From the NCBI GenBank assembly GCA_965205865.1, contig CBDBHR010000028.1, positions 288,001 to 352,000 on the forward strand: a DNA stretch of 64,000 nt, given 5' to 3'. The stretch is from a bacterium (GTDB lineage: Bacteria > SAR324 > NAC60-12). The notes below the pieces were generated by a model that was not told the origin of the DNA, ran no database searches, and was given only the letters and a program-made list of their open reading frames with translations. Below are positions 34,270-53,775 of this stretch, in pieces. A program made the position numbers and the translations under genes. Every line of letters begins with the position of its first letter. Position 1 is the first letter of the stretch.

Positions 34270-34280
34270 AGGGTCAGGCC

Positions 34281-34972
34281 GTGCGCCAGGAAAGCTGGCA
34301 AGAAATAGAGAGTGAAAGTCTCTTACTCGGTAAGGCAGTAACGACCCGCCGAGTCCCCGAGTCATGAGTGGTTATTCGCAAGGATAGGCGCTAAGCGTTG
34401 ACAGGGGAGAACATAGGCTCGGTATTGAGCTCCGAAATCATAGTTTCAGGTGCTGACCTTGTAGTCTGGTGGGGAAGGCAACATCAACCGAAGGCGTTAG
34501 CGTGAGTCCCGGTCGAGCCTGGCGGAGTCAAAGACCCGGTGCATGTGTGGAAGTTTCTTGATCGGAACCTGGGAGATCCTGAAGACGACTGTCAACATTC
34601 TATTGGTAGTCGGATCGGGAAAATTAATAAATAACCCCGATATCTACGTCTTCAGGAAGTCGGACAAGTTCGTAGTAGCGATGAAGCGGCGAACAATGAG
34701 ATCATTTGTAGAGAGTAATAATGCAAAGGAAATCAACGGAGCCTGTGGAGCAAAGGGACTTGGCTGAGAGGAATTCTGCTTGCCCTCCTGTGTTCGGAAC
34801 TCAGAGGCCGGTAAAATCAGAGAGCGGTTTAAGCAGGGTGCGCCAAACGGCAACGTCTGAGCGTCTGACTCGAAGCAGGAGCCGGATGCGTTAGCAGCGC
34901 ATGTCCGGATCTGTACCGGAGGAATGACGAAAGGTGGCTGGAAACCACTATAAGTCAGTTCTTTACGGTGAC
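34281..34972 (+). mobile_element. RT-deleted group II intron lineage A, copy 1, inside palindrome 34270-35040
   Basis: GTGCG start; domain V GAGCCGGATGCGTTAGCAGCGCATGTCCGGATC; domain VI with bulged A; ends GAC. Confidence 0.9.
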
Positions 34973-35025
34973 TTTGATTAAATGAAAAGGGAGCAAAAAA
35001 ACTAGACTCGTTCCTAATCAAACAA

Positions 35026-35337
35026 TCAAAGGCCTGACCCTGTTTCAAATCCCATCCATTGCCCTCTGCGCGTATTGGATTGCCGATCTTTCCTCACGTC
35101 CTCGGCCATACAAAGAATACGGTTTGCACTTCCCTTGAGGACGTCTTCATAATCTCGTAACATGTATGAAGACGGAATAGGACCAGAATATGAAACCTCC
35201 TTGATAACCCGAACAATATCACTACGAAATTCCTCAGGCAAAGAGTCGACGACTTTTTGTTGTGTCAAACTCAGTTTTTTTTCAGGAAAGTTATTACTCT
35301 GTGGTGTTTTCTCGTGTTTTTTTGAATTGCTCATCAT
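35026..35337 (-). pseudogene. DUF2335-like membrane protein, 3'-truncated at the palindrome
   Basis: SYSGPIP....L..YE.V..GSANRIL.MAE motif; stops after RGQWMGF, where TM helices would start. Confidence 0.7.
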
Positions 35338-35736
35338 ATTTATGGATTGCTGTAAACATGTCTTTTCCTACTTGACCCCAAACATCAGATATATCTTCTT
35401 CCTTGGAAGCCGGGAAATAATTATTTATCTCAATAGCATTAAATCCCTCTACAGCCATTTAAGAATCCGGCCCAGAATGCATCCGGTGTATAACTAGATA
35501 ATTTTGCGCGATCCCATTTTATTTTTTCCATAACATCATCTCCAAGATTATTAATCTCCCTATTATATTATGAATAATTCAAGATCATGATTATACAATA
35601 TTTGTCAACAACGCAAAAGTTATGCCATCACATATTAGTGTAATGAATGCGAGAATAAATGTATTAATATTTAAATCCATTTTCATTAAAAAGCTTGAGG
35701 ATATTTACACTCCACACCCTCAAGCCTATTCATTAA

Positions 35737-36153
35737 TCAATCACACCAGGATTCTCGTTTACCACCATCATATTTTCTAGTATAGTCATTTTCCAATAAA
35801 ATATCGGAGAGGTTCTCACCATCAAGAAAAACATCACAGACCAAGCGAAAATATTTACCACGTTCGCAGTCTTTCAAATCGATCTTTGTTGCTTGAGAAT
35901 GTAATTCTTCGACAAAGTCCCTGACTTGTTTCGCACGTGATTTTTCAATATCACACTTTCCTCGTATTTCAGGAGTATCAATTCCCCTGATGCGGACACT
36001 GATTTTATCTCCAAAAATTGCAAGAATATTTGCAATACTATATGTACAAGTATCTCCATCATAACATCGGTGCCATCGAACGTCGTAAAAATCCGCGGCA
36101 TCAACCATTAATGGAAATGGAAGTGCTAGTAAAAATAAAAGGAACATTCTCAT
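35737..36153 (-). CDS. Secreted thermonuclease (SNase-like), paralog 1
   Basis: Signal peptide; YDGDT, VRIRGIDTPE and RGKYFRLV motifs. Confidence 0.9.
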   Translation of the reverse strand: MRMFLLFLLALPFPLMVDAADFYDVRWHRCYDGDTCTYSIANILAIFGDKISVRIRGIDTPEIRGKCDIEKSRAKQVRDFVEELHSQATKIDLKDCERGKYFRLVCDVFLDGENLSDILLENDYTRKYDGGKRESWCD

Positions 36154-36330
36154 AACACATCTTTGATTGGGGTTGCAATTTCGACGCGCTTCTTCCGAAG
36201 GGCGTCGGGTTATTGCAACATGACCTAATCATAGGCGAAATGTCCCGATTATTTGTCCGAACCAAAGTGGCCAAACTTCAGTTCGAAATTGGACTTTTCT
36301 ATTCATCAGGTAACCCGACAAACTGACTAA
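36154..36330 (-). ncRNA. Candidate structured leader RNA, copy A; its promoter part lies beyond the IS5, at 37257-37338
   Basis: Homologous to 57451-57707, with compensatory base changes. Confidence 0.6.
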
Positions 36331-37256
36331 GAACTTATCCTTTAATAACTTGAAAATTGGTATTTCCTGCATTATTTTTGTCATCATGTTCAACCATAAA
36401 CGCATGGAGGCTATATGGCAAAAGTACAGTCGTGGGAAGTATCTGATTCATTTTGGGCCAGAGTGGAGCCACTGATACCAAAACCCAAACGTGACCCGAA
36501 CAAGACCTACAAGCGCAAACCCGGTGGTGGTAGAAAGCCAATGCCTGCGCGCCAAATTTTCGAGGGAATTGTATATGTTTTGCGCACCGGTTGTCAATGG
36601 AGAGCCCTTCCCAAGGAAAAATATGGGAGTCCTAGTGCCATCCATGCTCATTTCATGCGTTGGAATGAAGCGGGTTTCTTTTTGTCGCTTTGGCAAGCCG
36701 GACTTGCCGAATATGATGAGATGGAAGGGATCTCCTGGAAATGGCAAAGCATAGACGGCACGACTGTCAAAGCCCCACTGGCTCAGGAAACCGTTGGTCG
36801 AAACCCGACTGACAGGGGAAAAAAAAGGGAGCAAGCGTCATTTGCTGGTTGACGGCCGTGGTGTCCCGCTGTCCCTCGTCGTAACCGGGGCGAACCGGCA
36901 TGATGTGACACAGTTGGAATTGGTCTTGGAGGAAATCGTCATTGCGCGGCCTGAGGGCATTGAACAACACCTGTGCGCAGACAAAGGCTACCACGGTGAG
37001 CCAGCATCACAGATCATTCGATCCAATGATTATGTGCCACATGTGAAAAAACGGGGTGAAGAGATTCAAGAAAAAAAAGCAAATCCCCAATACAGACCCA
37101 GAAGATGGGTCGTCGAGGTGAGCCATTCATGGTTCAACAGATTTCGCAAGATAATGGTCCGATTCGAAAAATATAATCAAACTTATCTCGCACTGCTTCA
37201 ATTGGCTGCAGCTATCATAACTTACAGGAAAGTTAATGTTATTTAAGGATAAGTTC
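36331..37256 (+). mobile_element. IS5-family element (IS427-like), 926 bp
   Basis: Terminal IRs GAACTTATCCTTTAATAAC / GTTATTTAAGGATAAGTTC; TAA duplicated on both sides. Confidence 0.92.
36415..37246 (+). CDS. IS5-family transposase in two ORFs joined by a probable -1 frameshift
   Basis: LRTGCQWRALP, IDGT, ADKGY and RWVVE motifs; GGGGAAAAAAAAGGG slippery run near 36815-36829. Confidence 0.88.
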
Positions 37257-37393
37257 TAAGTCATATTGCAATTTTAAACCTATGTTACGGACAGAGAGTG
37301 TCAAGGGATTATCTTCAGCAGGATACTAGAAGATATTCTGTAGGGATTCAGGTCTCTCCTACTGCGACCCATGCATTCCATTGAGCATTGTAA

Positions 37394-37627
37394 AGAGACT
37401 TGGGAATCACAAAAAAATCAGCTTGGCATCTTGCCCATCGACTCCGGAAGACGTGGCAGGAAGATCAAGCGTTGTTCAAAGGGCCAGTTGAAGTGGATGA
37501 ATCCTAAATTTGCGGCAAAGAAAAGAATAAGCATGCTTCCAAGAAATTGAAGAAAGGACGCGGCCCTGTTGGTAAAAGTGCCGTCGCGGGCATCAAAGAC
37601 CGGAGTACCAACAAAGTGACAGCCTAA
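37394..37627 (+). pseudogene. IS1595-family transposase fragment
   Basis: Manual translation RDLGITKKSAWHLAHRLR...GPVEVDES*ICGKEKNKH...GRGPVGKSAVAGIKDR, with an internal stop. Confidence 0.8.
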
Positions 37628-37680
37628 AAAACAGAAAGTTTATTGTTTGAAATTATTTATTTTTTGAAGGAGGATTTGAA

Positions 37681-38082
37681 ATGGATTTAAGGAAAATATG
37701 TCAAAAATTGTATCTCATAATTTTTTTTTCGCTCATATTTATTTATCCGGTTTATTCTAATGAGGGGTTTATCGATTATAAAAATGAAATAACTGAATTT
37801 TCTGTTGTTGTCACTGAAGAATCAGAATTTATTGAATTTCATGTTGAAAATGACAGTTATTTTATCAAACTGCCAATCTCTGAATTGAGAAAGACAGAAC
37901 TCACATTGAGTGAAAATGGAATATCTGATGAGAACTTATCGAAAGTTGTGGAATATATCCTGATACAAACCTTCGACTCGGTTCGTGAGGAGTCATGGGT
38001 GGGAGTCAATGATACCGAACGCTTTCAGTTTCATGTTGGTTATTTCATAGAATATGAAATACAAGGTAGGAAAGGAAATTAG
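37681..38082 (+). CDS. Hypothetical exported acidic protein; frame stays open after the stop up to the palindrome
   Basis: AGGAGG RBS and signal-peptide-like N-terminus. Confidence 0.55.
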   Translation: MDLRKICQKLYLIIFFSLIFIYPVYSNEGFIDYKNEITEFSVVVTEESEFIEFHVENDSYFIKLPISELRKTELTLSENGISDENLSKVVEYILIQTFDSVREESWVGVNDTERFQFHVGYFIEYEIQGRKGN

Positions 38083-38217
38083 AGGATTCAATTCATTGAA
38101 GCTTACACGAATGCGATTCTGATTGAGGATCATTCAATTGATAATTACGGAAATTTTGTTACGACTCCAGAAAAAAAGAGTCGTTATGATGCAAAATTAA
38201 AGAAAGGGAGTCAGGCC

Positions 38218-39823
38218 GTGCGCCAGGAAAGCTGGCAAGAAATAGAGAGTGAAAGTCTCTTACTCGGTAAGGCAGTAACGACCCGCCGAGTCCCCGAGTC
38301 ATGAGTGGTTATTCGCAAGGATAGGCGCTAAGCGTTGACAGGGGAGAACATAGGCTCGGTATTGAGCTCCGAAATCATAGTTTCAGGCGCTGACCTTGTG
38401 GTCTGGTGGGGAAGGCAATATCAACCGAAGGCGTTAGCGTGAGTCCCGGCTGAGCCTGGCGGAGTCAAAGACCCGGTGCATGTGTGGAAGTTTCTTGATC
38501 GGAACCTGGGAGATCCTGAAGACGACTGTCAACATTCTATTGGTAGTCGGATCGGGAAAATTAATAAATAACCCCGATATCTACGTCTTCAGGAAGTCGG
38601 ACGAGTTCGTAGTGCGCACTGGGCAGCGCATGATTCAGGTGGGTTCAAGTTCCACTCAGCCTGAGATCCCAGGCTGATATCCAAAAGCGGGGGTAATGCC
38701 TCGCTGGCCGGAATGTTTACCAGGGCGCCATCCTGGGCGCTTTAAGCACAATGGGAGGTCGAAAGGGCCAAATGCACCGAAGTGAACTTCCGGAGGACAG
38801 GGTGTCCACCGTGAGGTGGAATCTGAAGGGTTTGCGGAGAATCACCGGGTCGTAGTCAAGGAGGCTACTCCAGAGACGAACCGGTCGGCCAACAGCAGGG
38901 AATGGTTGAGCTTGCACTATGATGGCGAAAGCAGTTGGATTCCCCCCTGCAATACCAAGGTGTGTGCGGACGACACGGTGAGGAAGAATCATGAGTGACC
39001 CCAGGAGGACTCAGGGCGTTCTTAGGTGGCACTAGGATAAGGGACCCTATAAGCGAAAGCGAAGTGGAAACCGAAGCGTGTTGAGTAGTCGGACCATCGA
39101 ATAGTACCTGAAGCGTAGTGAGAGCTACGTGACCGAGGGATCGGCAGCAGAGTGAGCTGGGGAAGGCGATGGGCAGAGAAGGTTGGAATGAGAAAGGAAG
39201 TCAGATGAGTAAGGACAGTGAGGTGGAAAGTTCGGTAAGTGAAAGACCCAGAACTCATGGCCCGAGGAGACTGGCTGACTGGATCAATCTAACGGGAGCA
39301 AAGAAGGTTCACTCCTTAGTGGACAAGATTTACAAGAAGCTCTCCCCGAAACAAGATTATATGGGGAGTATCGGTTAGTAAATCTGATCTCACTAATTCC
39401 TTCGATTGGTCCCTTCGGCAAACGGACTTCTCTGTGAAAGCCGGATGCGGGAAAACTGCACGTCCGGTTTGGGCGGCGGACGGTGGCTAGCGGAAACGCG
39501 CCTCCTCCGACCCGACAGCGATGAAGCGGCGAACAATGAGATCATTTGTAGAGAGTAACAACGCAAAGGAAATCAACGGAGCCTGTGGAGCAAAGGGACT
39601 TGGCTGAGAGGAATTCTGCTTGCCTTCCTGTGTTCGGAACTCAGAGGCCGGTAAAATCAGAGAGCGGTTTAAGCAGGGTGCGCCAAACGGCGAATCCGAA
39701 TCAACGTTTGAGCGTCTGACTCGAAGCAGGAGCCGGATGCGTTAGCAGCGCACGTCCGGATCTGTACCGGAGGAATGACGAAAGGTGGCTGGAAACCACT
39801 ATAAGTCAGTTCTTTACGGTGAC
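38218..39823 (+). mobile_element. Group II intron lineage A, copy 2 (outer intron of a twintron), inside palindrome ~38207-39892
   Basis: Near-identical to copy 1 once the ~0.9-kb insert is removed. Confidence 0.9.
38612..39516 (+). mobile_element. RT-deleted group II intron lineage B, nested in copy A2
   Basis: GTGCG start; domain V AAGCCGGATGCGGGAAAACTGCACGTCCGGTTT; ends CCCGAC; RT relic KKVHSLVDKIYKK joined to LPETRLYGEYRLVNLISLIP. Confidence 0.88.
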
Positions 39824-40014
39824 TTTGATTAAATGAAAAGGGAGCAAAAAAACTAGACTCGTTCTTAATCAAATAATCAAAGGCCTGACCCCCTTCCTCA
39901 TAATTCCTCCTTGGAAATAATTTTACCCAAAGGGTTGACAAAGGAGGAAACTTATGAGATAATAGAAATTAGTTAATTATTTACCCGCTCGTCTTTCCCT
40001 TGAGCGTTAAAAGT

Positions 40015-40050
40015 AAACGCTATGAAATCTCCAAATTTCATAGCGTTTTT
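40015..40050 (+). terminator. Intrinsic terminator-like hairpin
   Basis: AAACGCTATGAAAT-CTCCAA-ATTTCATAGCGTTT followed by a T tract. Confidence 0.7.
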
Positions 40051-40189
40051 TATTTGTCCGGTCACTCTACAATAAAATACTGAACAATACGAGTCATTTC
40101 TTTATCCTGTTATTCAGCATCTTGTCCTTGTTCAATCGAAGTTGATGCAATCTTAGAGATAGTCAGGCAATGATTACGACCTCTAGCTA

Positions 40190-42059
40190 GACCCTAGCCG
40201 AAAAGGGTTTCGAGAAATAGTAAATGTAACCAATTTGATTCTATTTGATTCTCTATTTGATTCAATATGACGAGAATAACGATTTATTTTGTTTTTTATT
40301 CGCCCACATGAAACAGTTTTTATAGGGAAAAAATCTTTTTTTGGACATACTTTCCTCGCCCCTGCTCATATTTCACACTTCCCCCATTGAATATTCAGGC
40401 CGCTTGTTTGAGTTGTCTTTTTTTCAACTCAATCATTTTGCAAAAATTATAGGTTAAGAGCTTTTTCCAGCAACTCTGCCCGAACGTTTTCAATCCCTCT
40501 GCGCATAACTTGTCCGAAATGGAAACGATGCTTAAGATGAAACATCAACGACTCTGCAGCAGATCTTCCATTTCGTGATTCCAAATAGATTTCACTTTCC
40601 CATTCTTCAATCGGGGTCATCTTTTTTCCCAAACGCCCCACTAATACTAAAAACCTTAACGCCTTTGCCCATCCACTTTTCTCTGATCGCCTGATTGGCA
40701 TATCCATCATCAAGGCTCACTTCAGAGGGAATGGTGATGGTGCATCGCAAATGTTCAACAAGGGCAGGGTCGAGTTGCCCTGAATCAGCAGCATGGCCCT
40801 CCGGAGTAATTAACACGGAAATAAAACCATTTCCGCTCCTTCCTAATTGAGGCTTATATCCGATAAGCGCTTCTCGATCTCTTTTGAATATAAGCCGAGC
40901 TCTGATCGGAAAGACTCAATACTTTCTCAGTCGAAGGAACCTTCTTTTCTTCAAAAACTCTTTGATGACAGTAGATGATTCCGTTGCAAATTAGAAATAT
41001 CTTCATTCATCATTTCAATGAGGCGAATAACGCGTTTTCCGAGAAGGGGGGAGAAGAGCTTTTTGAGGCACGGTAATAAGGACAGTTTGCGATTTCTTTT
41101 AAAAATTTCCCAAAGCGCTATTGAGCTTTCTCAATAGCGGTCATTTGAAATGTTTTTAAAAGCTTCGTTTTACTGTCCTTTTTACCGTGTCTCAAAAGCC
41201 ATCATCCCCCCTTAGAAAAGCTTATTCATCTCCTTGATGAGGAAATCAAAATTTCTTTCACTGATCTCAGCGATTCCAAATGTATCAAGGGAACGCCCTC
41301 GATGGTAGCTTCGCTCCGATCGAGACGAGTCATATTCGAGGGAATCGAGTAGGCCAAGCTGATATTTCCTTTTACAGAGGTGCTATCCAGTTTTTAATAT
41401 CAAAATCGTCCAACTCTTCATCGAGAACCATTCTGAATTCAGAGCAATCGAAAATAAACTGTTGAACTCTCGTTGATGACAGCATTGACCATTATCTGAA
41501 GGAGCCTTGTACTCGATCCCGGCATTGCCAATCCACGGTTGAGCAAAAGCAGATGCAAAGTGTGATTGACTCTGAAAGAATTATTTGGGCCGTTTGGGAT
41601 TTGATACTTCCTAAATGATCCCCGAATCATGATAAAAAGGTAAACTAAAAAAGCCGAATCCGAGGACAGATCTATTTCCAGTCCTGAGTTCTTCGGCTTC
41701 AATTCCTCATCTTCCATTACGGGAAGATGAGGAAGCCATGGATTCCGGGCTTCCTGCCAGTTTATCCTCTAAACGCTCTTTCTTTTTATTTCTTGCGTAT
41801 TTCTCCAAATCCTGTTCAATTTTGTCCAATATCTCCGGCTCTCGCTCAGACAATTGATCAAGTTCTGATAAGAAATTTTCAAATTCTGTATCAGGAGCGC
41901 TTAAAATAAGATGTTTTTCTGCTCGAATGAATGGTTTCATTTTGGGTGCCATAATTCTTAATATTGAAGTTATTCACAGTCATTTCAATGAATTATGGCA
42001 CTTTCAATAACCTCAAGTTTAAAGATATAATTCTAAAAAATACCTTTTCGGCTAGGATC
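40190..42059 (-). mobile_element. Degenerate copy of the 1833-bp DDE IS, flanked by TAGCTA
   Basis: Same IRs as 48922-50754; transposase broken by many indels. Confidence 0.88.
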
Positions 42060-42267
42060 TAGCTAAGTAATCCCGTAGAACTTTATCACAATATCACGCA
42101 ATTTTCTGTGAATTGTTCCCAAGTATTAAGAAAAATGTAGGATCCCAGTCATTTCTTTACGATCTGGCACATATATTGCCTTGTTGACAACTCCTGTATA
42201 ATATTCTGCATTTGTAAACCCTCAAAAGGATAAAATATAAGGATCACAAAAAACTATAAGGGGTGAC

Positions 42268-42429
42268 ATGACAGAAAAAAAAATTACAAAAATTAAAATT
42301 CATAATATGCCATTCGGAGGATTTTGGATTGATCCCAAAGACATCATCTTAAGTGATGAAGGTCAAAAAATAATCAAGCAAATAGCAAAAATATCTATTA
42401 AAAAAACTAAAGATAAATCTGAAGATTAA
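42268..42429 (+). CDS. Small basic hypothetical protein (53 aa)
   Basis: AAGGGG RBS; MTEKKITKIKIHNMPFGGFWIDPKDIILS...; ends 5 bp before the next gene. Confidence 0.45.
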   Translation: MTEKKITKIKIHNMPFGGFWIDPKDIILSDEGQKIIKQIAKISIKKTKDKSED

Positions 42430-42434
42430 AACAA

Positions 42435-43133
42435 ATGGGATTCGGATTATTTTTTCTCTCTTTGCTGGGAGGATACATATTCAATAGATGGTGCAAACTA
42501 ACCTCTTACTTCATTTATCGAGATACCGGTTACAATCTACTTTTCAAATCAGCATCAACTGGTGCTATATTAGCAATTATTTCTTACTTCATAATTCAAG
42601 GCTTCAATTTATCTCAATATAATATTTATGAATTAGAAAGAAACTTAGACATACCCAAATATACAATACTCTCTCTTCTATCATTTTTATTAGGACCAAT
42701 TTTATCAACACTCATCAATTCATTGAGTAAAATTAAAGAGATTGAAAAAAAAGCAATCTACAAATCCGAAAATTGGTTAGAAATATTATTCAGAGAATCT
42801 TCTGAAAATGGATTATTAATTGAGGTAACTCTAGAAAACGAGAAAGTATATGTGGGATGGATAATAAAAACTACCGATCCACGATTTAACAGACAATATT
42901 TTCAAATGCAGCTCATCTTAAGTGGATACCGAAACGATGAACTCAAAATAGAATTCACCACCAATTATGCGAGTGTCTACAACAAATTAAATAAGTTGAT
43001 AGAAGAACAAAAAATACAAATCAATGAACAAATTCCAGACTTTAAAATAATTATCTCTATCTCATCCTTAAGAAGCGCCAGACCGTTCAACTACGAAATA
43101 TACGAATTATTTGAAAATTTACATAATGAATAA
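42435..43133 (+). CDS. AT-rich hypothetical membrane protein
   Basis: Three TM segments followed by an IEVTLENEKVYVGW beta-rich domain. Confidence 0.7.
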   Translation: MGFGLFFLSLLGGYIFNRWCKLTSYFIYRDTGYNLLFKSASTGAILAIISYFIIQGFNLSQYNIYELERNLDIPKYTILSLLSFLLGPILSTLINSLSKIKEIEKKAIYKSENWLEILFRESSENGLLIEVTLENEKVYVGWIIKTTDPRFNRQYFQMQLILSGYRNDELKIEFTTNYASVYNKLNKLIEEQKIQINEQIPDFKIIISISSLRSARPFNYEIYELFENLHNE

Positions 43134-43238
43134 ATCCCTAAATCTCCAACCGGCCGAAGCCATATAAGCCGTGAATTTCAAACTAACTCGACGCCTTCAA
43201 AAAGGCGCCATTGCAACCATAAATGTGAGCAATGTGCT

Positions 43239-43649: not shown

Positions 43650-43777
43650 TATTATGGGAGCATCACAAAAAATATCCACCGCATATCGTAGGTGCTATGC
43701 GGTTCAGATAAGCCCCTAAATACATCATTCCGTTAAATTTTAACCTTTTTCAATTTGCGAGATATATTAGATGCAAG

Positions 43778-43990
43778 ATGTCTCGGAAAACGCGTTTGTA
43801 CGACCCTGGTACGCTTTGTCATGTGCTTCGAGGCAATGGGGACCAACGTATTTTTTTCGATGACAGCGACTCTCGTAGCCTTTATCAGTCTTCGATTGGA
43901 AATCTGCAACAATTCGGGAAGTGGCAAATGCTCTCAATCGAGATGATGCTACTTTCAGTCGTGGAGTGCATAAGTTGTGAGAAAGATTGA
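43778..43990 (+). pseudogene. Remnant of a REP-associated tyrosine (Y1/HUH) transposase
   Basis: MSRKTRLYDPGTLCHV-LRGNGDQRIFFDDSD matches the RAYT N-terminal pattern (M.R..R....G..YHV..RGN....IF..D.D); the catalytic part is missing. Confidence 0.7.
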
Positions 43991-44059
43991 AGGAATCCAC
44001 AAATCTCCAAAAGCGGTTAAAAAAACTTAACCTAAAAATGTTTTCTTAAATTCGCAAAC

Positions 44060-44075
44060 TTGCAAGCCTGACCCC
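44060..44075. repeat. Single arm of the GGGGTCAGG palindrome family
   Basis: TTGCAAGCCTGACCCC just downstream of the RAYT remnant. Confidence 0.65.
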
Positions 44076-44076
44076 C

Positions 44077-44268: not shown

Positions 44269-44327
44269 AGTTACTGAGTCTTATCTAACGATTTTTGAAG
44301 ATAGTCAATTTAACCTATTAATATTTA

Positions 44328-44891: not shown

Positions 44892-45304
44892 CACCGGGTT
44901 CAATTCTACTCGATAGAAAATATGCTTTCCAGTCAGGAGATTCTGGCCAGAAATTTGTTATTGTACTGAATGATGGAAGTGATTATCCTTACATTATAGT
45001 AAGAACTACCTCTCAACAAAAAAATAGAGGAACAATCTTTGGATGTCAGTCAAACGATAGATTCCCCAATTTTTTCCTTCCTCAAGGCAGTTGTTATTTT
45101 TCTAAACATACTTGGATACAATTAGAGGATTTTCGTGAGTTTCACATTGGTGACTTGCTTGATAAATTAAAGGCAGGTGAAATATTCAGAGCAGCAGAGC
45201 TTCCAAAAGACCTCACTATTAAGCTCTTAAGATGTGCTATATCATGTGATGATATTAGCCATGCACAAGCAGGAATTCTTCAAAAAATTCTAGCTATACT
45301 GTGA
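44888..45304 (+). CDS. Putative toxin, PemK/MazF-like fold
   Basis: ATGA overlap with the Panacea gene; PG.I......F......K..IVL......I...TTSQ pattern. Confidence 0.6.
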   Translation: MTPGSILLDRKYAFQSGDSGQKFVIVLNDGSDYPYIIVRTTSQQKNRGTIFGCQSNDRFPNFFLPQGSCYFSKHTWIQLEDFREFHIGDLLDKLKAGEIFRAAELPKDLTIKLLRCAISCDDISHAQAGILQKILAIL

Positions 45305-45325
45305 ACGGATGTTTTCTTCATTTTT

Positions 45326-45405
45326 TGTCATCCTGTGGGAACCGAATGATCTTCTTGATTCCCATGAGTTTCTTGCTTAGGTAGCCCCCTTAGCTCAGAA
45401 TGACA
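45326..45405. repeat. Degenerate REP-like palindrome
   Basis: TGTCATCCTG...CAGAATGACA termini. Confidence 0.5.
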
Positions 45406-45526
45406 GGTTTTTTGAAAAGTGAAATTTAAACCCGTTCAGAGTATAATCTTGAACAGTAATTTGAAATGTAATCAGAACAAAACGCTTCATCTGACTTACA
45501 CCAAGAATATAGAAAGGGGTCAGGCT

Positions 45527-46228
45527 GTGCGCCAGGAAAGCTGGCAAGAAATAGAGAGTGAAAGTCTCTTACTCGGTAAGGCAGTAACGACCCGCCGAGT
45601 CCCCGAGTCATGAGTGGTTATTCGCAAGGATAGGCGCTAAGCGTTGACAGGGGAGAACATAGGCTCGGTATTGAGCTCCGAAATCATAGTTTCAAGTGCT
45701 GACCTTGTAGTCTGGTGGGGAAGGCAACATCAACCGAAGGCGTTAGCGTGAGTCCCGGTCGAGCCTGGCGGAGTCAAAGACCCGGCGCATGTGTGGAAGT
45801 TTCTTGATCGGAACCTGGGAGATCCTGAAGACGACTGTCAACATTCTATTGGTAGTCGGATCGGGAAAATTAATAAATAACCCCGATATCTACGTCTTCA
45901 GGAAGTCGGACAAGTTCGTAGTAGCGATGAAGCGGCGAACAATGAGATCATTTGTAGAGAGTAACAATGCAAAGGAAATCAACGGAGCCTGTGGAGCAAA
46001 GGGACTTGGCTGAGAGGAATTCTGCTTGCCCTCCTGTGTTCGGAACTCAGAGGCCGGTAAAATCAGAGAGCGGTTCAAGCAGGGTGCGCCAAACGGCAAT
46101 CCGAATCAACGTTTGAGCGTCTGACTCGAAGCAGGAGCCGGATGCGTTAGCAGCGCACGTCCGGATCTGTACCGGAGGAATGACGAAAGGTGGCTGGAAA
46201 CCACTATAAATCAGTTCTTTACGGTGAC
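45527..46228 (+). mobile_element. Group II intron lineage A, copy 3, inside palindrome 45516-46296
   Basis: Near-identical to copy 1; GTGCG...GGTGAC. Confidence 0.9.
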
Positions 46229-46325
46229 TTTGATTAAATGAAAAGGGAGCAAAAAACTGGACTCGTTCCTAATCAAATAATTAAAGGCCTGACCCCTTTT
46301 CTGACCCCTTTTTAGGAGAGCAGTT

Positions 46326-47692
46326 ATGCGTAAGCCTAATTTGAATAAAGTACGGAATTATTCAAATCGATGTTTGTTTGCTCTTATTTTTCTATCAGTT
46401 TTGAGCAGTTGCGACAGACTTAAAAACTTGGCCGGGCAACCGGAATCCGTATATGTTCAGCAAATTGAAGCCCTCTCCGCTCGGTTGAACGCGCTCGAAA
46501 GCGTGATTCAGCAACAGATACCTGTCTTGCAACAGATACGTGAAAACGTTACCCCGGCCGAGATATCCCCGCAGTGGGAGAATCAGCTCGAGCAACTGGA
46601 AAGCCAGCTTGCAAGCAGCGATAAATGGCCAAAGGATGCTGGTGAAGCAGGACAATTTTTCGAACAAACATCCAAACTCGTCACCGGTCTGCCGGTTTGG
46701 GCCGAGGCGAAGTACCTCCCGCGGCTTTCCGTGGTCCGTTGGGCTGCGATGTCTTTCAACAGTCTCAATCACCCGCGAGATGATAGCCAGTCTCTGGATC
46801 AACTCGAACAACTCATCGACGGCATGCGCGATCTGGCTGATGTCAGTCCCGAGGGAGGTTCAGTGGATCTGGTTAGGCGATTGCGCGAAAATGCCGTAGA
46901 AATTGAGGACAAGACTACCAGACGGAGGGTCAAAGAAGTTGTTGAACAGGCGATTCAATACGTGGGAGATATCCCGGCTGACACTACAGATATTGCCGGC
47001 CTTTACGAGTTTCTGGAGTTGTATGAGAAGGACAATGATCATGCTGACGTCATCGATGTCGATGTCTCAGCCCTGCGGAAAAAGTTGTATGAAAAAATTG
47101 TAACACGTCAAGCCAATGACCGGGCAGCCAGTCTGCGCTCTCAATGGAAGAACGTAAAAGAATTGGCAAATGATCAACCTCAACCAGCGGTTTATGAAGT
47201 TGCCACCAGGACGCTGCTTCAACAGGTGATGTCAGCCCAGGCGGCCCTTGTTCTGGAAAGTATCGAGACACCAGTCTACAACGAGTTGCAGAAAGAACTA
47301 CGCGCTGCTGTGGAGACAATTGAATCCCAAGCTGAAGAGCGTCAAGCACTGGCCATGCGCGACTATCAACGCTGGGCCCTTGAGAAAATCAAGGTCTTTG
47401 AGGACCTCGAATATCAGGCGATCTCGGAAAAAGCGGACGATGAAGCCGATCGATGGCGCTGCGACGTGATGATGGCGGATGGATTGACTACTATCTGGAA
47501 GTTCAAGAAGCCATGATCAAGCATCTCCTGCCAATCAACGTTGTTTTATTGGATCTGCCCGTTCAAGAACGCTACCATCAAGCATTTCAAACAGGGTGGA
47601 AGAAATTGGATGGACGTGAAAATCAGACAACCGTGGCGGTATCTTCTGCTACCACCAAGAAGAAATCGCTCCGGGACATTCTGGAGGAATAA
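46326..47692 (+). CDS. Coiled-coil lipoprotein with an apparent frameshift near 47460
   Basis: AGGAG RBS and LSSC lipobox; the C-terminus continues in ORF 47453-47692, which ends 2 bp before the next gene. Confidence 0.6.
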
Positions 47693-48921
47693 TCATGAGA
47701 ATCCGTCAGATTACGAGCATCACGATCTTGTTGCTGTTGGCTGCAACGGCTTCTAATCTCGTTTGGGCTCTCACCCCCACTTCATCAATGGAGTTGCCCC
47801 TGACGCAGGGGGAGCAGGCCGCAAGACTCTGGCGGATTGCCAGTGCGGAGGTCGCTCGCAAGCTCTATCCGACTTTCGGTAGAGACGATCGAACCAAAGT
47901 TTTATTACCAGCGCAACTATCGCCTCCTGTGGATTGAAGCAACCCTCAATCAACGGATACTGTTGGCAGAAAAGATTGGTGTTACAAGGTGCCGCCAGGT
48001 TCGCTGCGGAACGAGGTTGGATTAAGATACTCGGTTTTCGGTATCGTGGCATCCAACAAGGGCCAGACTCCGTGTATTGGGATCAACGATCAGGTCGTCT
48101 CCGCGTACTGGAAGCGAAAGGAGGAACTGCCAAACCAATAAAGGCTTTCAATAGCTTGCAGGGTACGAATAAAAACGCGATCAGGTCTGCTAGATTTGTT
48201 CTTCGGTCATTAAAAGCAACCCTTATGGAAAAACATGCGGCTGCACTTGTAATTGTGGCTGCTCAGCAGGGTCGACTCGTTACAGGTGTAATAAATACTC
48301 TTCACAAGTTGGGAACTCCGGACACCCCCAAGCTGGCAGGCAATTGGGATTACGATTATGTAGGAAGGGAAGCAAGCACGATCGAGCAGAAATTAATCCG
48401 TAATAAACCCGAGGTTCGATCAGTCTTTCGGCATGCGCATAAGGAGCAATCATTTGCCATGCTGAAATACTGGGAAACCCGAAGACCGGCGAACATTGGA
48501 TTTGCTAGGAATGCGTACCAGCAGTCACTGATTGCCTGGTCCAAGTTCAACAATCCTCCCCTGAAAGGAAACGTTTTACCCTACATAAGGACTGGCTCGT
48601 CGATTCACAGAATAACACAGTCAACTACTCAACCAGGTATTTTGAGACTTTCCAAGGAGGGAGTTAGTAAGTTTGCCGGCAGATTGATTCTACCGGTCAT
48701 CCTTGGTGTGGAGGGATTACAATTTGCCATAGCATATCACCAATACGGCTTGGGTCGTATCAGTCAGCGTGATTTCTACCGTCGCACTACCGGACCCGCG
48801 ATCGTCGCGGTTTTCACAGTCGGCGGAGCTATAGTTGGTGGGATTATTGGAATGCAAGGCGGAGGGATCACGGCAATCCCAGTTGCCTACACTGGTGCCA
48901 AAATAGGCGCGATCCTAGCTA

Positions 48922-50754
48922 GACCCTAGCCGAAAAGGGTTTCGAAAATAGTAAATGTAACCAATTTGATTCTATTTGATTCTCTATTTGATTCAATATG
49001 ACGAGAAAACGATTTTTTTGTTTTTTATTCGCCCACAGCACAGTTTTTATAGGGAAAAAATCTTTTTTGGACATACTTTCCTCGCCCCTGCTCATATTTC
49101 ACACTCCCCCATTGAATATTCAGGCCGCTTGTTTGAGTTGTCTTTTTTTCAACTCAATCATTTTGCAAAAATTATAGGTTAATGCTTTTTCCAGCAACTC
49201 TGCCCGAACGTTTTCAATCCCTCTGCGCATAACTTGTCCGAAATGGAAACGATGCTTAAGATGAAACATCAACGACTCTGCAGCAGATCTTCCATTTCGT
49301 GATTCCAAATAGATTTCACTTTCCCATTCTTCAATCGGGGTCATCTTTTTTCCCTTTGCCCCACTAATACTAAAAACCTTAACGCCTTTGCCCATCCACT
49401 TTTCTCTGATCGCCTGATTGGCATATCCATCATCAAGGCTCACTTCAGAGGGAATGGTGATGGTGCATCGCAAATGTTCAACAAGGGCAGGGTCGAGTTG
49501 CCCTGAATCAGCAGCATTGCCCTCCGGAGTAATTAACACGGAAATAAAACCATTTCCGCTCCTTCCTAATTGAGGCTTATATCCGATAAGCGCTTCTCGA
49601 TCTCCCTTTTGAATATAAGCCGAGCTCTGATCGGAAAGACTCAATACTTTCTCAGTAGAAGGAACCTTCTTTTCTTCAAAAACTCTTTGATGACAGTAGA
49701 TGATTACCCGTTGCAAATTAGAAATATCTTCATTCATCATTTCAATGAGGCGAATCAAACGCGTTTTCCGAGAAGGGGGGAGAAGAGCTTTTTGGGCACG
49801 GATATCCACCTTTGCCATTTCTTTTAAAAATTTCCCATGAGCGCTTTGAGCTTTCTTCAATAGGGTTTTGTAATGTTTTTTTCGCTTCGTTTTACTGTCC
49901 TTTTTACCTGTCTCAAAAGCCATCATCTTAGAGAGCTTATTCATCTCCTTGATGAGGAAATCAAAATTTCTTTCACTGATCTCAGCGATTCCAAATGTAT
50001 CAAGGGAACGCCCTCGATGGTAGCTTCGCTCCACGAGACGAGTCAATATCGACGAATCAGTAGGCCAAGCTGTATTTCCTTTTACAGAGGTGCTATCCAG
50101 TTTTAAAATATCAAAATCGTCCAACTCTTCATCGAGAACCATTCGAATTTGAGCATCGAAAATAAACTGTCTGCTCTCGTTGCTGACAGCATTGACATTA
50201 TCAAGGATTGTACTCGCTCCCGGCATTTTCAATCCACGGTTGAGCAGAAGCAGATGCAGTGTGATTGACTCTGAAAGAAATATTTGGGCCGTTTGGGATT
50301 TGATACTTCCTAAATATCCCCGAATCATCATAAAAAGGTAGACTAAAAAAGCCGACATCCGAGGACACCCTATTTCCAGCCTCAGTTCTTCCGGCTTCAA
50401 TTCCTCATCTTCTACGGGAAGATGAGGAAGCCATGGATTCCGGGCTTCCTGCCATCGTTTATCCTCTAAACGCTCTTTCTTTTTATTTCTTGCGTATTTC
50501 TCCAAATCCTGTTCAATTTTGTCCAATATCTCCGGCTCTCGCTCAGACAATTGATCAAGTTCTGATAAGAAATTTTCAAATTCTGTATCAGGAGCGCTTA
50601 AAATAAGATGTTTTTCTGCTCGAATGAATGGTTTCATTTTGGGTGCCATAATTCTTAATATTGAAGTTATTCACAGTTATTTCAATGAATTATGGCACTT
50701 TTTAACCTCAAGTTTAAAGATATAATTCTAAAAAATACCTTTTCGGCTAGGATC
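48922..50754 (-). mobile_element. DDE IS (ISNCY/IS5-like), 1833 bp, tandem copy 1
   Basis: IRs GACCCTAGCCGAAAAGG / CCTTTTCGGCTAGGATC; TAGCTA on both sides. Confidence 0.93.
49120..50649 (-). CDS. DDE transposase, 509 aa
   Basis: LDST...N..WPTDS, LDDGY and RSAAES motifs. Confidence 0.88.
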   Translation of the reverse strand: MAPKMKPFIRAEKHLILSAPDTEFENFLSELDQLSEREPEILDKIEQDLEKYARNKKKERLEDKRWQEARNPWLPHLPVEDEELKPEELRLEIGCPRMSAFLVYLFMMIRGYLGSIKSQTAQIFLSESITLHLLLLNRGLKMPGASTILDNVNAVSNESRQFIFDAQIRMVLDEELDDFDILKLDSTSVKGNTAWPTDSSILTRLVERSYHRGRSLDTFGIAEISERNFDFLIKEMNKLSKMMAFETGKKDSKTKRKKHYKTLLKKAQSAHGKFLKEMAKVDIRAQKALLPPSRKTRLIRLIEMMNEDISNLQRVIIYCHQRVFEEKKVPSTEKVLSLSDQSSAYIQKGDREALIGYKPQLGRSGNGFISVLITPEGNAADSGQLDPALVEHLRCTITIPSEVSLDDGYANQAIREKWMGKGVKVFSISGAKGKKMTPIEEWESEIYLESRNGRSAAESLMFHLKHRFHFGQVMRRGIENVRAELLEKALTYNFCKMIELKKRQLKQAA

Positions 50755-50760
50755 TAGCTA

Positions 50761-52593
50761 GACCCTAGCCGAAAAGGGTTTCGAAAATAGTAAATGTAAC
50801 CAATTTGATTCTATTTGATTCTCTATTTGATTCAATATGACGAGAAAACGATTTTTTTGTTTTTTATTCGCCCACAGCACAGTTTTTATAGGGAAAAAAT
50901 CTTTTTTGGACATACTTTCCTCGCTCCTGCTCATATTTCACACTCCCCCATTGAATATTCAGGCCGCTTGTTTGAGTTGTCTTTTTTTCAACTCAATCAT
51001 TTTGCAAAAATTATAGGTTAATGCTTTTTCCAGCAACTCTGCCCGAACGTTTTCAATCCCTCTGCGCATAACTTGTCCGAAATGGAAACGATGCTTAAGA
51101 TGAAACATCAACGACTCTGCAGCAGATCTTCCATTTCGTGATTCCAAATAGATTTCACTTTCCCATTCTTCAATCGGGGTCATCTTTTTTCCCTTTGCCC
51201 CACTAATACTAAAAACCTTAACGCCTTTGCCCATCCACTTTTCTCTGATCGCCTGATTGGCATATCCATCATCAAGGCTCACTTCAGAGGGAATGGTGAT
51301 GGTGCATCGCAAATGTTCAACAAGGGCAGGGTCGAGTTGCCCTGAATCAGCAGCATTGCCCTCCGGAGTAATTAACACGGAAATAAAACCATTTCCGCTC
51401 CTTCCTAATTGAGGCTTATATCCGATAAGCGCTTCTCGATCTCCCTTTTGAATATAAGCCGAGCTCTGATCGGAAAGACTCAATACTTTCTCAGTAGAAG
51501 GAACCTTCTTTTCTTCAAAAACTCTTTGATGACAGTAGATGATTACCCGTTGCAAATTAGAAATATCTTCATTCATCATTTCAATGAGGCGAATCAAACG
51601 CGTTTTCCGAGAAGGGGGGAGAAGAGCTTTTTGGGCACGGATATCCACCTTTGCCATTTCTTTTAAAAATTTCCCATGAGCGCTTTGAGCTTTCTTCAAT
51701 AGGGTTTTGTAATGTTTTTTTCGCTTCGTTTTACTGTCCTTTTTACCTGTCTCAAAAGCCATCATCTTAGAGAGCTTATTCATCTCCTTGATGAGGAAAT
51801 CAAAATTTCTTTCACTGATCTCAGCGATTCCAAATGTATCAAGGGAACGCCCTCGATGGTAGCTTCGCTCCACGAGACGAGTCAATATCGACGAATCAGT
51901 AGGCCAAGCTGTATTTCCTTTTACAGAGGTGCTATCCAGTTTTAAAATATCAAAATCGTCCAACTCTTCATCGAGAACCATTCGAATTTGAGCATCGAAA
52001 ATAAACTGTCTGCTCTCGTTGCTGACAGCATTGACATTATCAAGGATTGTACTCGCTCCCGGCATTTTCAATCCACGGTTGAGCAGAAGCAGATGCAGTG
52101 TGATTGACTCTGAAAGAAATATTTGGGCCGTTTGGGATTTGATACTTCCTAAATATCCCCGAATCATCATAAAAAGGTAGACTAAAAAAGCCGACATCCG
52201 AGGACACCCTATTTCCAGCCTCAGTTCTTCCGGCTTCAATTCCTCATCTTCCACGGGAAGATGAGGAAGCCATGGATTCCGGGCTTCCTGCCATCGTTTA
52301 TCCTCTAAACGCTCTTTCTTTTTATTTCTTGCGTATTTCTCCAAATCCTGTTCAATTTTGTCCAATATCTCCGGCTCTCGCTCAGACAATTGATCAAGTT
52401 CTGATAAGAAATTTTCAAATTCTGTATCAGGAGCGCTTAAAAAAAGATGTTTTTCTGCTCGAATGAATGGTTTCATTTTGGGTGCCATAATTCTTAATAT
52501 TGAAGTTATTCACAGTGATTTCAATGAATTATGGCACTTTTTAACCTCAAGTTTAAAGATATAATTCTAAAAAATACCTTTTCGGCTAGGATC
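50761..52593 (-). mobile_element. DDE IS, 1833 bp, tandem copy 2
   Basis: Almost identical to copy 1; flanked by TAGCTA / GAGCTA. Confidence 0.93.
50959..52488 (-). CDS. DDE transposase, 509 aa
   Basis: Differs from 49120-50649 at one visible residue (I15F). Confidence 0.88.
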   Translation of the reverse strand: MAPKMKPFIRAEKHLFLSAPDTEFENFLSELDQLSEREPEILDKIEQDLEKYARNKKKERLEDKRWQEARNPWLPHLPVEDEELKPEELRLEIGCPRMSAFLVYLFMMIRGYLGSIKSQTAQIFLSESITLHLLLLNRGLKMPGASTILDNVNAVSNESRQFIFDAQIRMVLDEELDDFDILKLDSTSVKGNTAWPTDSSILTRLVERSYHRGRSLDTFGIAEISERNFDFLIKEMNKLSKMMAFETGKKDSKTKRKKHYKTLLKKAQSAHGKFLKEMAKVDIRAQKALLPPSRKTRLIRLIEMMNEDISNLQRVIIYCHQRVFEEKKVPSTEKVLSLSDQSSAYIQKGDREALIGYKPQLGRSGNGFISVLITPEGNAADSGQLDPALVEHLRCTITIPSEVSLDDGYANQAIREKWMGKGVKVFSISGAKGKKMTPIEEWESEIYLESRNGRSAAESLMFHLKHRFHFGQVMRRGIENVRAELLEKALTYNFCKMIELKKRQLKQAA

Positions 52594-52770
52594 GAGCTAT
52601 TCCTGTTCATTTTGCAGCCGATTATATGTTGGATTGGCATTACCGGGAATTCGATGAACATCAACGTCTGGTCGTTAATGCGGCAGTTGAAAAACACTAT
52701 GGCTTGAACCCCGGATCATAGTTCAACACTGACTCGTGATCATACCTTTACCCTGAAACGGGGACAGGCC

Positions 52771-53462
52771 GTGCGCCAGGAAAGCTGGCAAGAAATAGAG
52801 AGTGAAAGTCTCTTACTCGGTAAGGCAGTAACGACCCGCCGAGTCCCCGAGTCATGAGTGGTTATTCGCAAGGATAGGCGCTAAGCGTTGACAGGGGAGA
52901 ACATAGGCTCGGTATTGAGCTCCGAAATCATAGTTTCAGGCGCTGACCTTGTGGTCTGGTGGGGAAGGCAATATCAACCGAAGGCGTTAGCGTGAGTCTC
53001 GGCTGAGCCTGGCGCAGTCAAAGACCCGGTGCATGTGTGGAAGTTTCTTGATCGGAACCTGGGAGATCCTGAAGACGACTGTCAACATTCTATTGGTAGT
53101 CGGATCGGGAAAATTAATAAATAACCCCGATATCTACGTCTTCAGGAAGTCGGACAAGTTCGTAGTAGCGATGAAGCGGCGAACAATGAGATCATTTGCA
53201 GAGAGTAACAATGCAAAGGAAATCAACGGAGCCTGTGGAGCAAAAGGACTTGGCTGAGAGGAATTCTGCTTGCCCTCCTGTGTTCGGAACTCAGAGGCCG
53301 GTAAAATCAGAGAGCGGTTTAAGCAGGGTGCGCCAAACGGCAACGTTTGAGCGTCTGACTCGAAGCAGGAGCCGGATGCGTTAGCAGCGCACGTCCGGAT
53401 CTGTACCGGAGGAATGACGAAAGGTGGCTGGAAACCACTATAAGTCAGTTTTTTACGGTGAC
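52771..53462 (+). mobile_element. Group II intron lineage A, copy 4, inside palindrome 52760-53531
   Basis: Near-identical to copy 1; GTGCG...GGTGAC. Confidence 0.9.
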
Positions 53463-53775
53463 TTTGATTAAATGAAAAGGGAGCAAAAAAATTGGACTCG
53501 TTCCTAATCAAATAATCAATGGCCTGACCCCCTTCCAAGTTCGTGAAAGTTTGGGTCAAATATTTTCTCATCTTTTCGATCAGAAGGAAAAGATGAAGAT
53601 AAGTTTTAGGAATTTGAATCGAGAAGATTTTCATTTTTTACCACGTTGACATCCATTGCCTCCCCTTTGAATGCCGGTCGTCTTTTCAGGCGGCCGGGTT
53701 TAGGTTATTCTTTTTTTGGTGATATAGTAAACTCTCCTGTTCTTTAAGAGTCAAGTCGTAATTTGTTTGTAAGGA

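Follow-up and report, generated by a model that had tools for sequence, protein, structure and literature searches.

A group II intron family at the ends of TIRtron-like elements and their miniature palindromes in a SAR324 bacterium

A stretch of 64 kb from a SAR324 bacterium (contig CBDBHR010000028.1, positions 288,001 to 352,000; G000:C28:288001-352000 in our numbering, in which G000 denotes the source assembly of 4.74 Mb and 30 contigs), hereafter referred to as the window, contains four group II introns without a reverse transcriptase (RT) gene, each of which interrupts one arm of a palindrome of approximately 80 bp. The question raised by this locus is whether intron and palindrome constitute a unit that moves or recombines as a whole, as had been proposed in an earlier reading of the sequence alone (the sequence-only reading), or whether the palindrome is a landing site that was invaded repeatedly. 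We consider it probable (roughly 0.85) that the four units represent independent retrohoming events, with the RT acting in trans, into the ends of transposase-bearing elements known as TIRtrons and into miniature derivatives of these elements.

Anatomy of the four units

The introns were located in the window with Rfam, which yielded four full-length matches to RF02005 (group-II-D1D4-6, model positions 1-225), all on the + strand and with scores of 158.4-164.6 bits against a cut-off of 49 bits; the earlier proposal of four RT-less group II introns in the same orientation was confirmed in this respect. Copy 1 occupies 34281-34972 (692 nt, without an open reading frame (ORF), haplotype I, 164.2 bits), copy 2 occupies 38218-39823 (1606 nt in total, haplotype II, 164.6 bits), copy 3 occupies 45527-46228 (702 nt, haplotype I, 158.4 bits), and copy 4 occupies 52771-53462 (692 nt, haplotype II, 163.1 bits), the two haplotypes being distinguished by at least three linked differences. 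Each copy begins with GTGCGCC and ends with CGGTGAC, in agreement with the 5' GUGCG and 3' AY boundaries of group II introns. The loop that we assign below to exon-binding site 1 (EBS1) reads GUAGUCUGG in copy 1 and GUGGUCUGG in copy 2. The length of about 0.7 kb that had been given for all four introns holds for copies 1, 3, and 4 (692-702 nt) and not for copy 2, which contains a nested intron of 905 nt. Copy 3 carries a 10-nt insertion close to the joint at which the ORF was deleted, and 10 letters at 46097 are missing in some contigs from public sequencing runs.

All four introns are inserted at the same point of the palindrome, GGGGTCAGGCY^TTTGATTA. The 5' side of each intron is an 11-mer of the form GGGGTCAGGCC, from which every copy departs by one substitution: AGGGTCAGGCC at 34270-34280 in unit 1 (the outer 11 nt of the arm, including CAGGCC as intron-binding site 1 (IBS1)), GGAGTCAGGCC at 38207-38217 in unit 2, GGGGTCAGGCT at 45516-45526 in unit 3, and GGGGACAGGCC at 52760-52770 in unit 4, all on the + strand. 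The remaining 68-69 nt of the palindrome follow on the 3' side, at 34973-35041 in unit 1 (69 nt, comprising the inner arm, the spacer, and the right arm), 39824-39892 in unit 2, 46229-46296 in unit 3, and 53463-53531 in unit 4, likewise on the + strand, and terminate in the reverse complement of the 11-mer plus TTTGATTA. When the introns are removed, the palindrome reads [A/G]G[G/A]G[T/A]CAGGC[C/T] followed by TTTGATTAAATG...TAATCAA[A/T]GGCCTGACCC[C/T].

An intron-free palindrome from elsewhere in the genome was predicted to fold as a hairpin with a 19-bp stem (-23.2 kcal/mol, z = -8.4), the arms of which pair perfectly and without extrahelical bases. The restoration of a palindrome with 19-bp arms upon intron removal, which had been described previously, is borne out with the qualification that, in three of the four units, the intron-side arm has a single mismatch to the far arm. 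It follows from this anatomy that splicing would restore the hairpin in RNA. With up to one mismatch, the 11-mer arm occurs nine times in the window against an expectation of 0.65, and none of 100 shuffles contained nine or more. Beyond the arms, the flanks are specific to each unit, being either unique or part of other repeats, and a comparison of these flanks revealed no target duplication at the four units, both of which agree with the sequence-only reading.

Four nearly identical units in a short distance may also be suspected of being an assembly artefact, in which one or two true loci were multiplied by a misassembled high-copy repeat. Approximately 40 intron copies in the genome share 96-99% identity, and short-read contigs break at the intron edges, as would be expected in this case. 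However, unique flanks were found on both sides of each unit, the copies have their own substitutions and belong to two haplotypes, unit 2 is marked by its nested intron and unit 3 by its 10-nt insertion, and word depth in one independent run was ~84 over the intron and ~5 over the flanks, as for a multi-copy element. Considering these features, we regard an artefact as very unlikely. Among 24 entries for public runs, 20 contain part of the stretch, and the contigs compared were from two runs of unrecorded type and two labelled as RNA.

Intron family, target, and palindrome

In the whole genome, BLAST with copy 1 detected 41 intron 5' ends and 38 3' ends. At least four copies of 1957 nt contain an open frame for a 470-aa RT/maturase (TIGR04416, 339.8 bits against a cut-off of 300; RVT_1, 126 bits, besides which Pfam detected no domain in this protein), and in a further ORF-bearing copy of 2039 nt the frame is broken. 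Loss of 1265 nt of the ORF from the 1957-nt sequence gives the 692-nt form seen in the window, and the intron-encoded RT/maturase is absent from all four window copies. Since intact 1957-nt copies are present elsewhere, the window copies are non-autonomous members of the family, and the search for an intact cognate RT that the sequence-only reading had recommended was successful. The ribozyme without the ORF measures ~545 nt; IIE/IIF introns without their intron-encoded protein measure 450-700 nt (PMC3753933). At G000:C26:239009-240180, two introns of the main family lie head to tail, the second beginning right after the last base of the first, which could have resulted either from homing at a site that adjoins an intron end or from duplication in tandem.

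Regarding the target, all 41 5' exons conform to (A)AAGGGGTCAGGCY with few substitutions, and the 3' exons belong to several families that show no relation to one another (TTTGATTA..., TGCATA..., TGCAAG..., TGAAAG..., TCGTTA..., and some singletons). The sequence GGGTCAGGCY is present at 164 sites in the genome, 28 occupied and 136 empty, against ~18 expected from length alone. In the Rfam alignment, domain I contains a hairpin with the loop GU[A/G]GUCUGG, in which [A/G]GUCUG is able to pair with CAGGC[U/C], the final six bases of the 5' exon (IBS1). In a genome of a related genus (G008), the homologous loop is UGGCUG, and both insertion sites end with CA[G/A]CCA. The pair AGUCUG/CAGGCU in the source genome is, therefore, matched by UGGCUG/CAGCCA in the relative, with compensatory changes at two positions, and because loop and target covary on both sides, we take the domain I loop to be EBS1. 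Pairing at position -1 is possible in 32 of 36 copies. Judged from these sites, the homing site of the intron is the 11 nt GGGGTCAGGCY, which form the outer clamp of the terminal inverted repeats (TIRs) of the Y1 elements described below. Another candidate for EBS1, AGCCUG at intron nt 236-241, was rejected on the grounds that it lies in a stem according to Rfam and is unable to pair with the target in G008.

Class C introns target terminators and attC sites. Homing directed by structure in a similar manner, with a stem-loop such as a terminator-like hairpin being recognised instead of a sequence, would account for the position of the target within a strong hairpin between A- and T-rich runs. 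Insertion, however, occurs 11 nt into the 5' arm and not 3' of the stem-loop, a partner arm within 90 nt is lacking at the majority of occupied sites, changes in the target sequence are matched by changes in the EBS1 loop, and the ORF-less ribozyme of ~545 nt possesses a full EBS1 of 6-7 nt. Recognition of structure is, on this evidence, a highly improbable basis for the insertions.

The palindrome itself was surveyed in the whole genome with its 58-nt core as the query, which returned 30 copies on 10 contigs. Seventeen copies are empty (11 with both arms intact and six decayed or truncated), seven carry an intron in the arm that is used in the window, six carry an intron in the other arm and on the other strand, and none has introns in both arms at once. 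Among the 38 intron 3' ends, 13 are inside a palindrome and 25 are elsewhere. The right arm had been described as never occupied, which is correct within the window and incorrect for the genome, given the six copies with an intron in that arm. Empty palindromes, the use of both arms, and introns at non-palindrome sites had been named in advance as signs of simple retrohoming, and each of them was encountered (17 of 30 copies; seven and six copies; 25 of 38 ends).

The origin of the palindrome is indicated by the Y1 transposase genes of the same genome. A Pfam search gave 15 matches to Y1_Tnp, and 10 of these loci are bounded by the clamp or by a clamp with an inserted intron; in five of the 10, the intron is located directly 5' of the transposase gene. 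The sequence GGGGTCAG flanks the element at 155-1360 of locus L061 and four more Y1 genes on both sides, and five further genes have an intron at the clamp on one side. The Y1 proteins of 276-328 aa combine Y1_Tnp with a Bac_DnaA_C helix-turn-helix (HTH); in two proteins, PF01797 scored 53.8 and 46.8 bits against a cut-off of 23, and PF08299 scored 32.7 and 34.9 bits against 31.5. Their translations contain HVH and FQGRY, which we take to be the HUH and tyrosine motifs of Y1 proteins, respectively. The element at L061, on contig C26, is intact, with an ORF at 246-1232 for a 328-aa Y1_Tnp and Bac_DnaA_C protein between inverted repeats. It begins with GGGGTCAGGCCTTTGATTAAAT and finishes with ATAATCAAAGGCCTGACCCC, the outer 22 nt of each end being identical to the left and right ends of the palindrome. 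Because the ends coincide, the palindrome is a gene-less miniature of this element in which polarity is kept, and since the miniature retains both the left and the right end, it offers the target once per strand.

Five near-identical TIRtrons on contig C29 all have different flanks, which suggests that they moved in the past; three are empty, one contains an ORF-less intron, and one contains a full-length intron. The region that holds them (G000:C29:717000-746000) is a second and denser hot spot, with these five TIRtrons and five introns in 30 kb.

RAYT-like genes flanked by TIRs have been named TIRYTs and the corresponding units TIRtrons, which have a common GGGGWSAS motif and occur alongside single and paired TIRs that enclose no gene (Di Nocera et al., 2013; PMC3733652). 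Most TIRYTs are in subclass 2.1, with Bac_DnaA_C or HTH (HTH_23, HTH_28) tails (Quentin et al., 2018; PMC6006769). The sequence GGGGTCAG agrees with GGGGWSAS, and by the organization of their genes and repeats, the Y1 elements in this genome are assigned to the TIRYT/TIRtron class. A REP/REPIN-like element tied to an HUH enzyme had been envisaged previously, and the REPIN-like nature and the link to a Y1 enzyme were upheld, whereas the tests specific to REPs and RAYTs failed. The arms (GGGGTCAGGCCTTTGATTA) are not self-complementary and lack a GTAG end, REPs being defined as imperfect short palindromes tagged by GTAG or CGTC (PMC3733652), and the Y1 transposase scored 71.1 bits on the RayT model NF047646, below its cut-off of 80. 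The search for an intact RAYT, also recommended earlier, thus led to an intact gene for a 328-aa Y1 protein with matching ends, of a class that is RAYT-like. Nevertheless, two inverted repeats and a spacer that fold as a hairpin, dispersed in 30 copies, are a trait of REPINs, and the palindrome works like a REPIN without being one.

A different origin would be that the palindromes are attC sites of an integron, or of an attC cluster that lacks an integrase, and that attC-targeting introns mark the gene cassettes. This explanation draws on the way in which ~80-bp palindromes separate small genes of unrelated kinds, among them a toxin-antitoxin-like pair (SocA_Panacea), and on published examples of attC-targeting IIC introns (PMC3001079) and of IIB introns in integrons (PMC7923331). 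However, the best match to the integron integrase TIGR02249 reached 43 bits against a cut-off of 265, and similar sub-threshold matches were present in 14 of 14 control genomes. Furthermore, the 30 palindromes are spread over 10 contigs with only four in the window, their ends are the ends of Y1 transposons, and their arms pair perfectly without extrahelical bases. On the integrase search and on the distribution, ends, and pairing of the palindromes, we consider an integron origin to be extremely unlikely. The suggestion that the units serve as cassette-like boundaries is likewise not supported: no integron integrase was detected at the cut-off, and the blocks between the units, in which the toxin-antitoxin-like pair reported earlier is indeed present, hold insertion sequence (IS) elements and a dead TIRtron as well, and no ordered cassettes.

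Independent homing or joint movement

The four units allow the history of the intron to be compared with that of the palindrome. Introns of haplotype I are present in units 1 and 3 and those of haplotype II in units 2 and 4, whereas column 33 of the palindrome spacer groups unit 1 with unit 2 (A) and unit 3 with unit 4 (G). Since the two intron haplotypes and the two palindrome variants appear in all four combinations, the units did not arise by the copying of a single composite. On a tree of 35 intron copies (six of the 41 were excluded as truncated), the types of insertion site showed no clustering, and the changes needed were as with shuffled labels. The census, the crossed haplotypes, and the unclustered tree argue against the sequence-only claim that intron and palindrome move or recombine as a unit.

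A comparison of 31 genomes of the same order, G000 included, detected the intron in three: the source genome, G001 of the same genus (10 matches, ~90% identity), and G008 of the same family (nine matches). Three ORF-less copies in G001 are located at the left end of TIRtron genes at GGGGGTCTGGCT and have a common, identical upstream flank of 45 nt; because this identical flank extends beyond the repeat, the three TIRtron::intron units represent a segmental duplication. A full-length copy in G001 (OZ242383.1, locus L025) lies inside a mini-hairpin with the same clamp. Two decayed copies of the 80-bp palindrome are present in G001, and the one examined is empty. The island itself has no counterpart in G001, in which only the upstream gene for a solute-binding protein (98% identity) and scattered repeats matched. 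As judged by these matches, the intron is linked to TIRtron ends throughout the genus at least, and it is specifically in the source genome that the 80-bp family has expanded.

Some of these data are what would be expected if palindrome and intron formed one composite that was copied or recombined by the Y1/HUH transposase and delimited cassette-like gene blocks. Four occupied units lie within 19 kb in one orientation, all four palindromes in the window are occupied against 13 of 30 genome-wide, and the spacer GGGAGC is enriched in occupied copies (nine of 13, against four of 17 empty ones; p = 0.025, uncorrected). Matching intact Y1 transposase genes are available in the genome, and the three units with the identical 45-nt flank in G001 are an example of duplication together with the intron. 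Opposed to this are the 17 empty palindromes among 30, the use of both arms (seven and six), the 25 of 38 introns located elsewhere, the crossing of two intron haplotypes with two spacer variants, and the failure of intron copies to cluster by site type. In addition, only two of the five near-identical TIRtrons on C29 are occupied, one by an ORF-less and one by a full-length intron, and the blocks between the units consist of IS elements and a dead TIRtron rather than ordered cassettes. An intron between the outer 11 nt and the rest of the ~22-nt repeat should also hinder recognition of the hairpin or of the ends. A composite is, therefore, improbable as the source of the four units; what had been termed a composite unit is an intron in its landing site, and does not constitute a new composite mobile element or a cassette system.

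Independent homing is, in turn, weakened by several observations. The full occupancy in the window (hypergeometric probability of ~0.026, calculated by hand) and the excess of GGGAGC (Fisher's exact test, one of four columns) fit some local or lineage effect and are not predicted by independent homing. The intron tree was poorly resolved, with only one of 32 inner branches being well supported. The A/G variant of EBS1 showed no covariation with the base at -1 within the genome (seven T and four C with the A variant, 15 T and 10 C with the G variant; Fisher p = 1.0), and no EBS2 was identified with confidence, GACCUU at intron nt 172-177 being a possible EBS2 only. Domain V/VI of copy 1 scored only 30.1 bits on RF00029 against a cut-off of 40; an AGC-bearing domain V helix is visible in the alignment, the low score is attributed to a long domain VI, and the RT-bearing copies scored similarly (28.8 bits). 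The 5' flank of unit 1 is a fragment of another intron that is joined inside the 10-mer AGGGTCAGGC, which indicates a rearranged history for at least one unit. Splicing, mobilization in trans, and targeting by a ribonucleoprotein (RNP) are processes that we infer from the sequence, and the short contigs of the public runs, none of which bridges a unit, show no splice joints and speak neither for nor against splicing or empty alleles. In one run labelled as RNA, a loose end of 27 letters resembling an empty arm was found beside intron sequence and is not interpretable. A lower complementarity of the intron-side arm to the far arm in occupied palindromes would have pointed to joint entry of the intron and its 3' exon at new sites; occupied and empty palindromes did not differ in this respect (Mann-Whitney p = 0.57, with one row offset by an alignment shift).

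The local effects could be accommodated if the intron lineage were a dedicated parasite of TIRtron ends that had also spread at the DNA level, either with Y1 moving occupied elements or with the intron and its 3'-exon hairpin being retro-copied; we consider this scenario unlikely. If it were correct, the local run of four and the spacer excess would represent composite spread on top of RNA-level homing, and an intron between the clamp and the transposase gene would make expression or end recognition dependent on splicing.

Under the preferred reading of independent retrohoming, the ORF-less RNAs would be spliced and mobilised in trans by the RT/maturase from intact copies. The lariat RNP may locate its target through pairing of the EBS1 loop [A/G]GUCUG with the IBS1 CAGGC[U/C], and reverse splicing after GGCY would be followed by copying into DNA. 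The clustering of the four units may then reflect a junkyard of mobile DNA in which several palindrome copies happened to lie near each other.

The orientation of the insertions was examined separately. On contig C28, the + strand carries all nine intron 5' ends regardless of the polarity of the palindrome, and this suggests that the region has a strand bias and not that one arm is preferred. A strand bias has been reported for endonuclease-less introns that use replication forks. The GC skew along the contigs was weak and showed no replichore pattern. With introns masked, the sense strand of the intron was G-rich for 28 of 41 copies at +/-10 kb (p = 0.03), 29 of 41 at +/-30 kb (p = 0.012), and 18 of 41 at +/-100 kb (p = 0.53), and co-orientation with the local majority of long ORFs was not significant (25 of 41, p = 0.21).

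Known systems and neighbouring elements

Work by Mohr, Ghanem, and Lambowitz in 2010 is said to have described ORF-less, trans-mobilised group II introns and twintrons in Thermosynechococcus elongatus. The present family resembles that system in its dozens of near-identical copies, few of which bear an RT and many of which are ORF-deleted and would need RT in trans, in the nesting of introns in domain IV of others, and in its EBS-loop variants. It differs in its RF02005 ribozyme, in its non-cyanobacterial host, and in the use of a single target by the majority of its copies, the target being provided by terminal repeats of a DNA transposon family. A second parallel is RmInt1 from Sinorhizobium meliloti, an endonuclease-less intron with its homing site in ISRm2011-2 (PMC1802570, PMC4075523). 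Both have an RT/maturase without DNA-binding/endonuclease (D/En) domains and EBS-IBS targeting, and both home to a site within another mobile element, along with which the intron multiplies. However, the present intron is hosted by a Y1 (HUH) TIRtron and its miniature palindromes and not by a DDE insertion sequence, and the target is in the terminal repeat, so that both strands are offered by each element.

The host elements correspond to published TIRtrons in their Y1_Tnp core, HUH motif, catalytic Tyr, and Bac_DnaA_C-like HTH tail (PMC3733652, PMC6006769), and in the position of the genes between GGGGWSAS inverted repeats that also exist as gene-less monomers and dimers (PMC3733652). They differ in being multi-copy, with 15 Y1 matches and 164 clamp sites, and in having several families of inner arms with one clamp. 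As in REPINs and RAYTs (Bertels and Rainey, 2011; PMC3116915), spaced inverted repeats form a gene-less, dispersed hairpin, and a Y1 gene is flanked by the same repeats; unlike in that system, the arms are not self-palindromic, the GTAG tag is missing, and the transposase is below the RayT cut-off. The role of the repeats as landing sites for other mobile elements has a precedent in REPs (Tobes and Pareja, 2006; PMC1525189), and in Pseudomonas putida KT2440, a group II intron was REP-associated in two of nine copies (PMC1525189). Group IIC introns at attC sites and terminators likewise occupy palindromic DNA between genes in one orientation (PMC3001079), but lie beside or after a stem-loop that is recognised by structure and with a reduced EBS, whereas the introns described here are within the arm, are paired with the target by sequence, and are also present at hairpin-free sites.

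Families of ORF-less introns, twintrons, and the homing of introns to other mobile elements are already known, and the mechanism proposed is standard; the pairing of an intron with TIRtron ends may not have been described before. The word 'intron' has no occurrences in PMC3733652, nor has 'group II intron' in PMC6006769, and our literature searches on group II introns with RAYTs or REPs yielded only the association of two in nine copies in P. putida. The locus exemplifies layered parasitism, with a TIRtron, its miniature palindromes, an intron family that homes to the clamp, RT-less derivatives of this family, and further introns nested in these. With ~40 copies, two haplotypes, and 164 targets, 136 of which are empty, the genome lends itself, as a natural data set, to the study of how endonuclease-less introns choose their targets and of the growth of TIR repeat families.

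Copy 2 is a twintron, that is, a second complete intron resides inside the first. The nested intron, the boundaries of which were set by comparing copy 2 with copy 1, is at 38612-39516 on the + strand, in domain IV of copy 2, and is a 905-nt ORF-less member of another family. It has its own domain V (RF00029 at 39436-39516, 44.2 bits against 40) and a weak match to RF02001 over domains I-IV (27.5 bits against a cut-off of 32), and its three copies in the genome are all at one position within the outer intron. Two types of ORF-less nested introns, of 905 nt (n = 3) and 906 nt (n = 4), were found, only inside domain IV of the main intron; their insertion points are 4 nt apart, and one locus of the 906-nt type is G000:C28:263300-264205.

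The fragment that flanks unit 1, at 34015-34279 on the + strand (~265 nt), represents the truncated 5' part of an intron from a third ORF-less group II family, and its homology runs into the left arm of unit 1. At other places in the genome, it is matched four times over its full length (248-268 nt, 94-96% identity) and twice in part, and all of these matches end at 34279. The homologues diverge after ...AGGGTCAGGC, with the homology reaching the base before the splice site of unit 1. A full copy of this third family on C29 (~0.86 kb) has a domain V of 54.3 bits against 40, a duplicated 3' part, and AGGGTCAGGC within domain I, and the match to RF02001 at 34121-34281 is weak (21.7 bits against 32). 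The join to unit 1 may represent a microhomology or recombination joint.

A pair of IS4/IS5-type transposase genes is present at 36415-37246, between units 1 and 2. An insertion sequence of 1.84 kb has three copies in the window, at 40202-42065, 48915-50753, and 50754-52599, the latter two being in direct tandem. The tandem copies encode a 509-aa DDE_Tnp_1 transposase on the - strand (31.7 bits), and the first copy is without a long open frame. The dead TIRtron, at 43725-44075 on the + strand, comprises the first 47 and the last ~55 codons of a TIRYT gene (tblastn, 53-80% identity); its right terminal repeat is kept at 44048-44075, with an empty clamp at 44065-44075 on the - strand, and its left repeat is missing. 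Being internally deleted and truncated at the 5' end, this element resembles a snapshot of the origin of a miniature derivative.

Located 70 nt 5' of unit 3, at 45295-45447, is a dispersed repeat of 151 nt that is unrelated to the palindrome and has ~20 more copies in the genome (90-96% identity); word depth in the public runs is raised at this position. Downstream of unit 4, a 1048-aa Type ISP restriction-modification protein is encoded at 54195-57341 on the - strand, with coupler, N6 methylase, and C-terminal specificity domains; it has only ~180 aa before the coupler, and the nuclease/helicase part seems to be missing. At 46297-46320, and beside several other palindromes in the genome, the flank contains short tandem echoes of the clamp (...TGACCCCTTTTCTGACCCCTTTTT, or GGGGTCAGAAGGGGGTCAGGCC), which may be footprints of the insertion or excision of Y1 elements.

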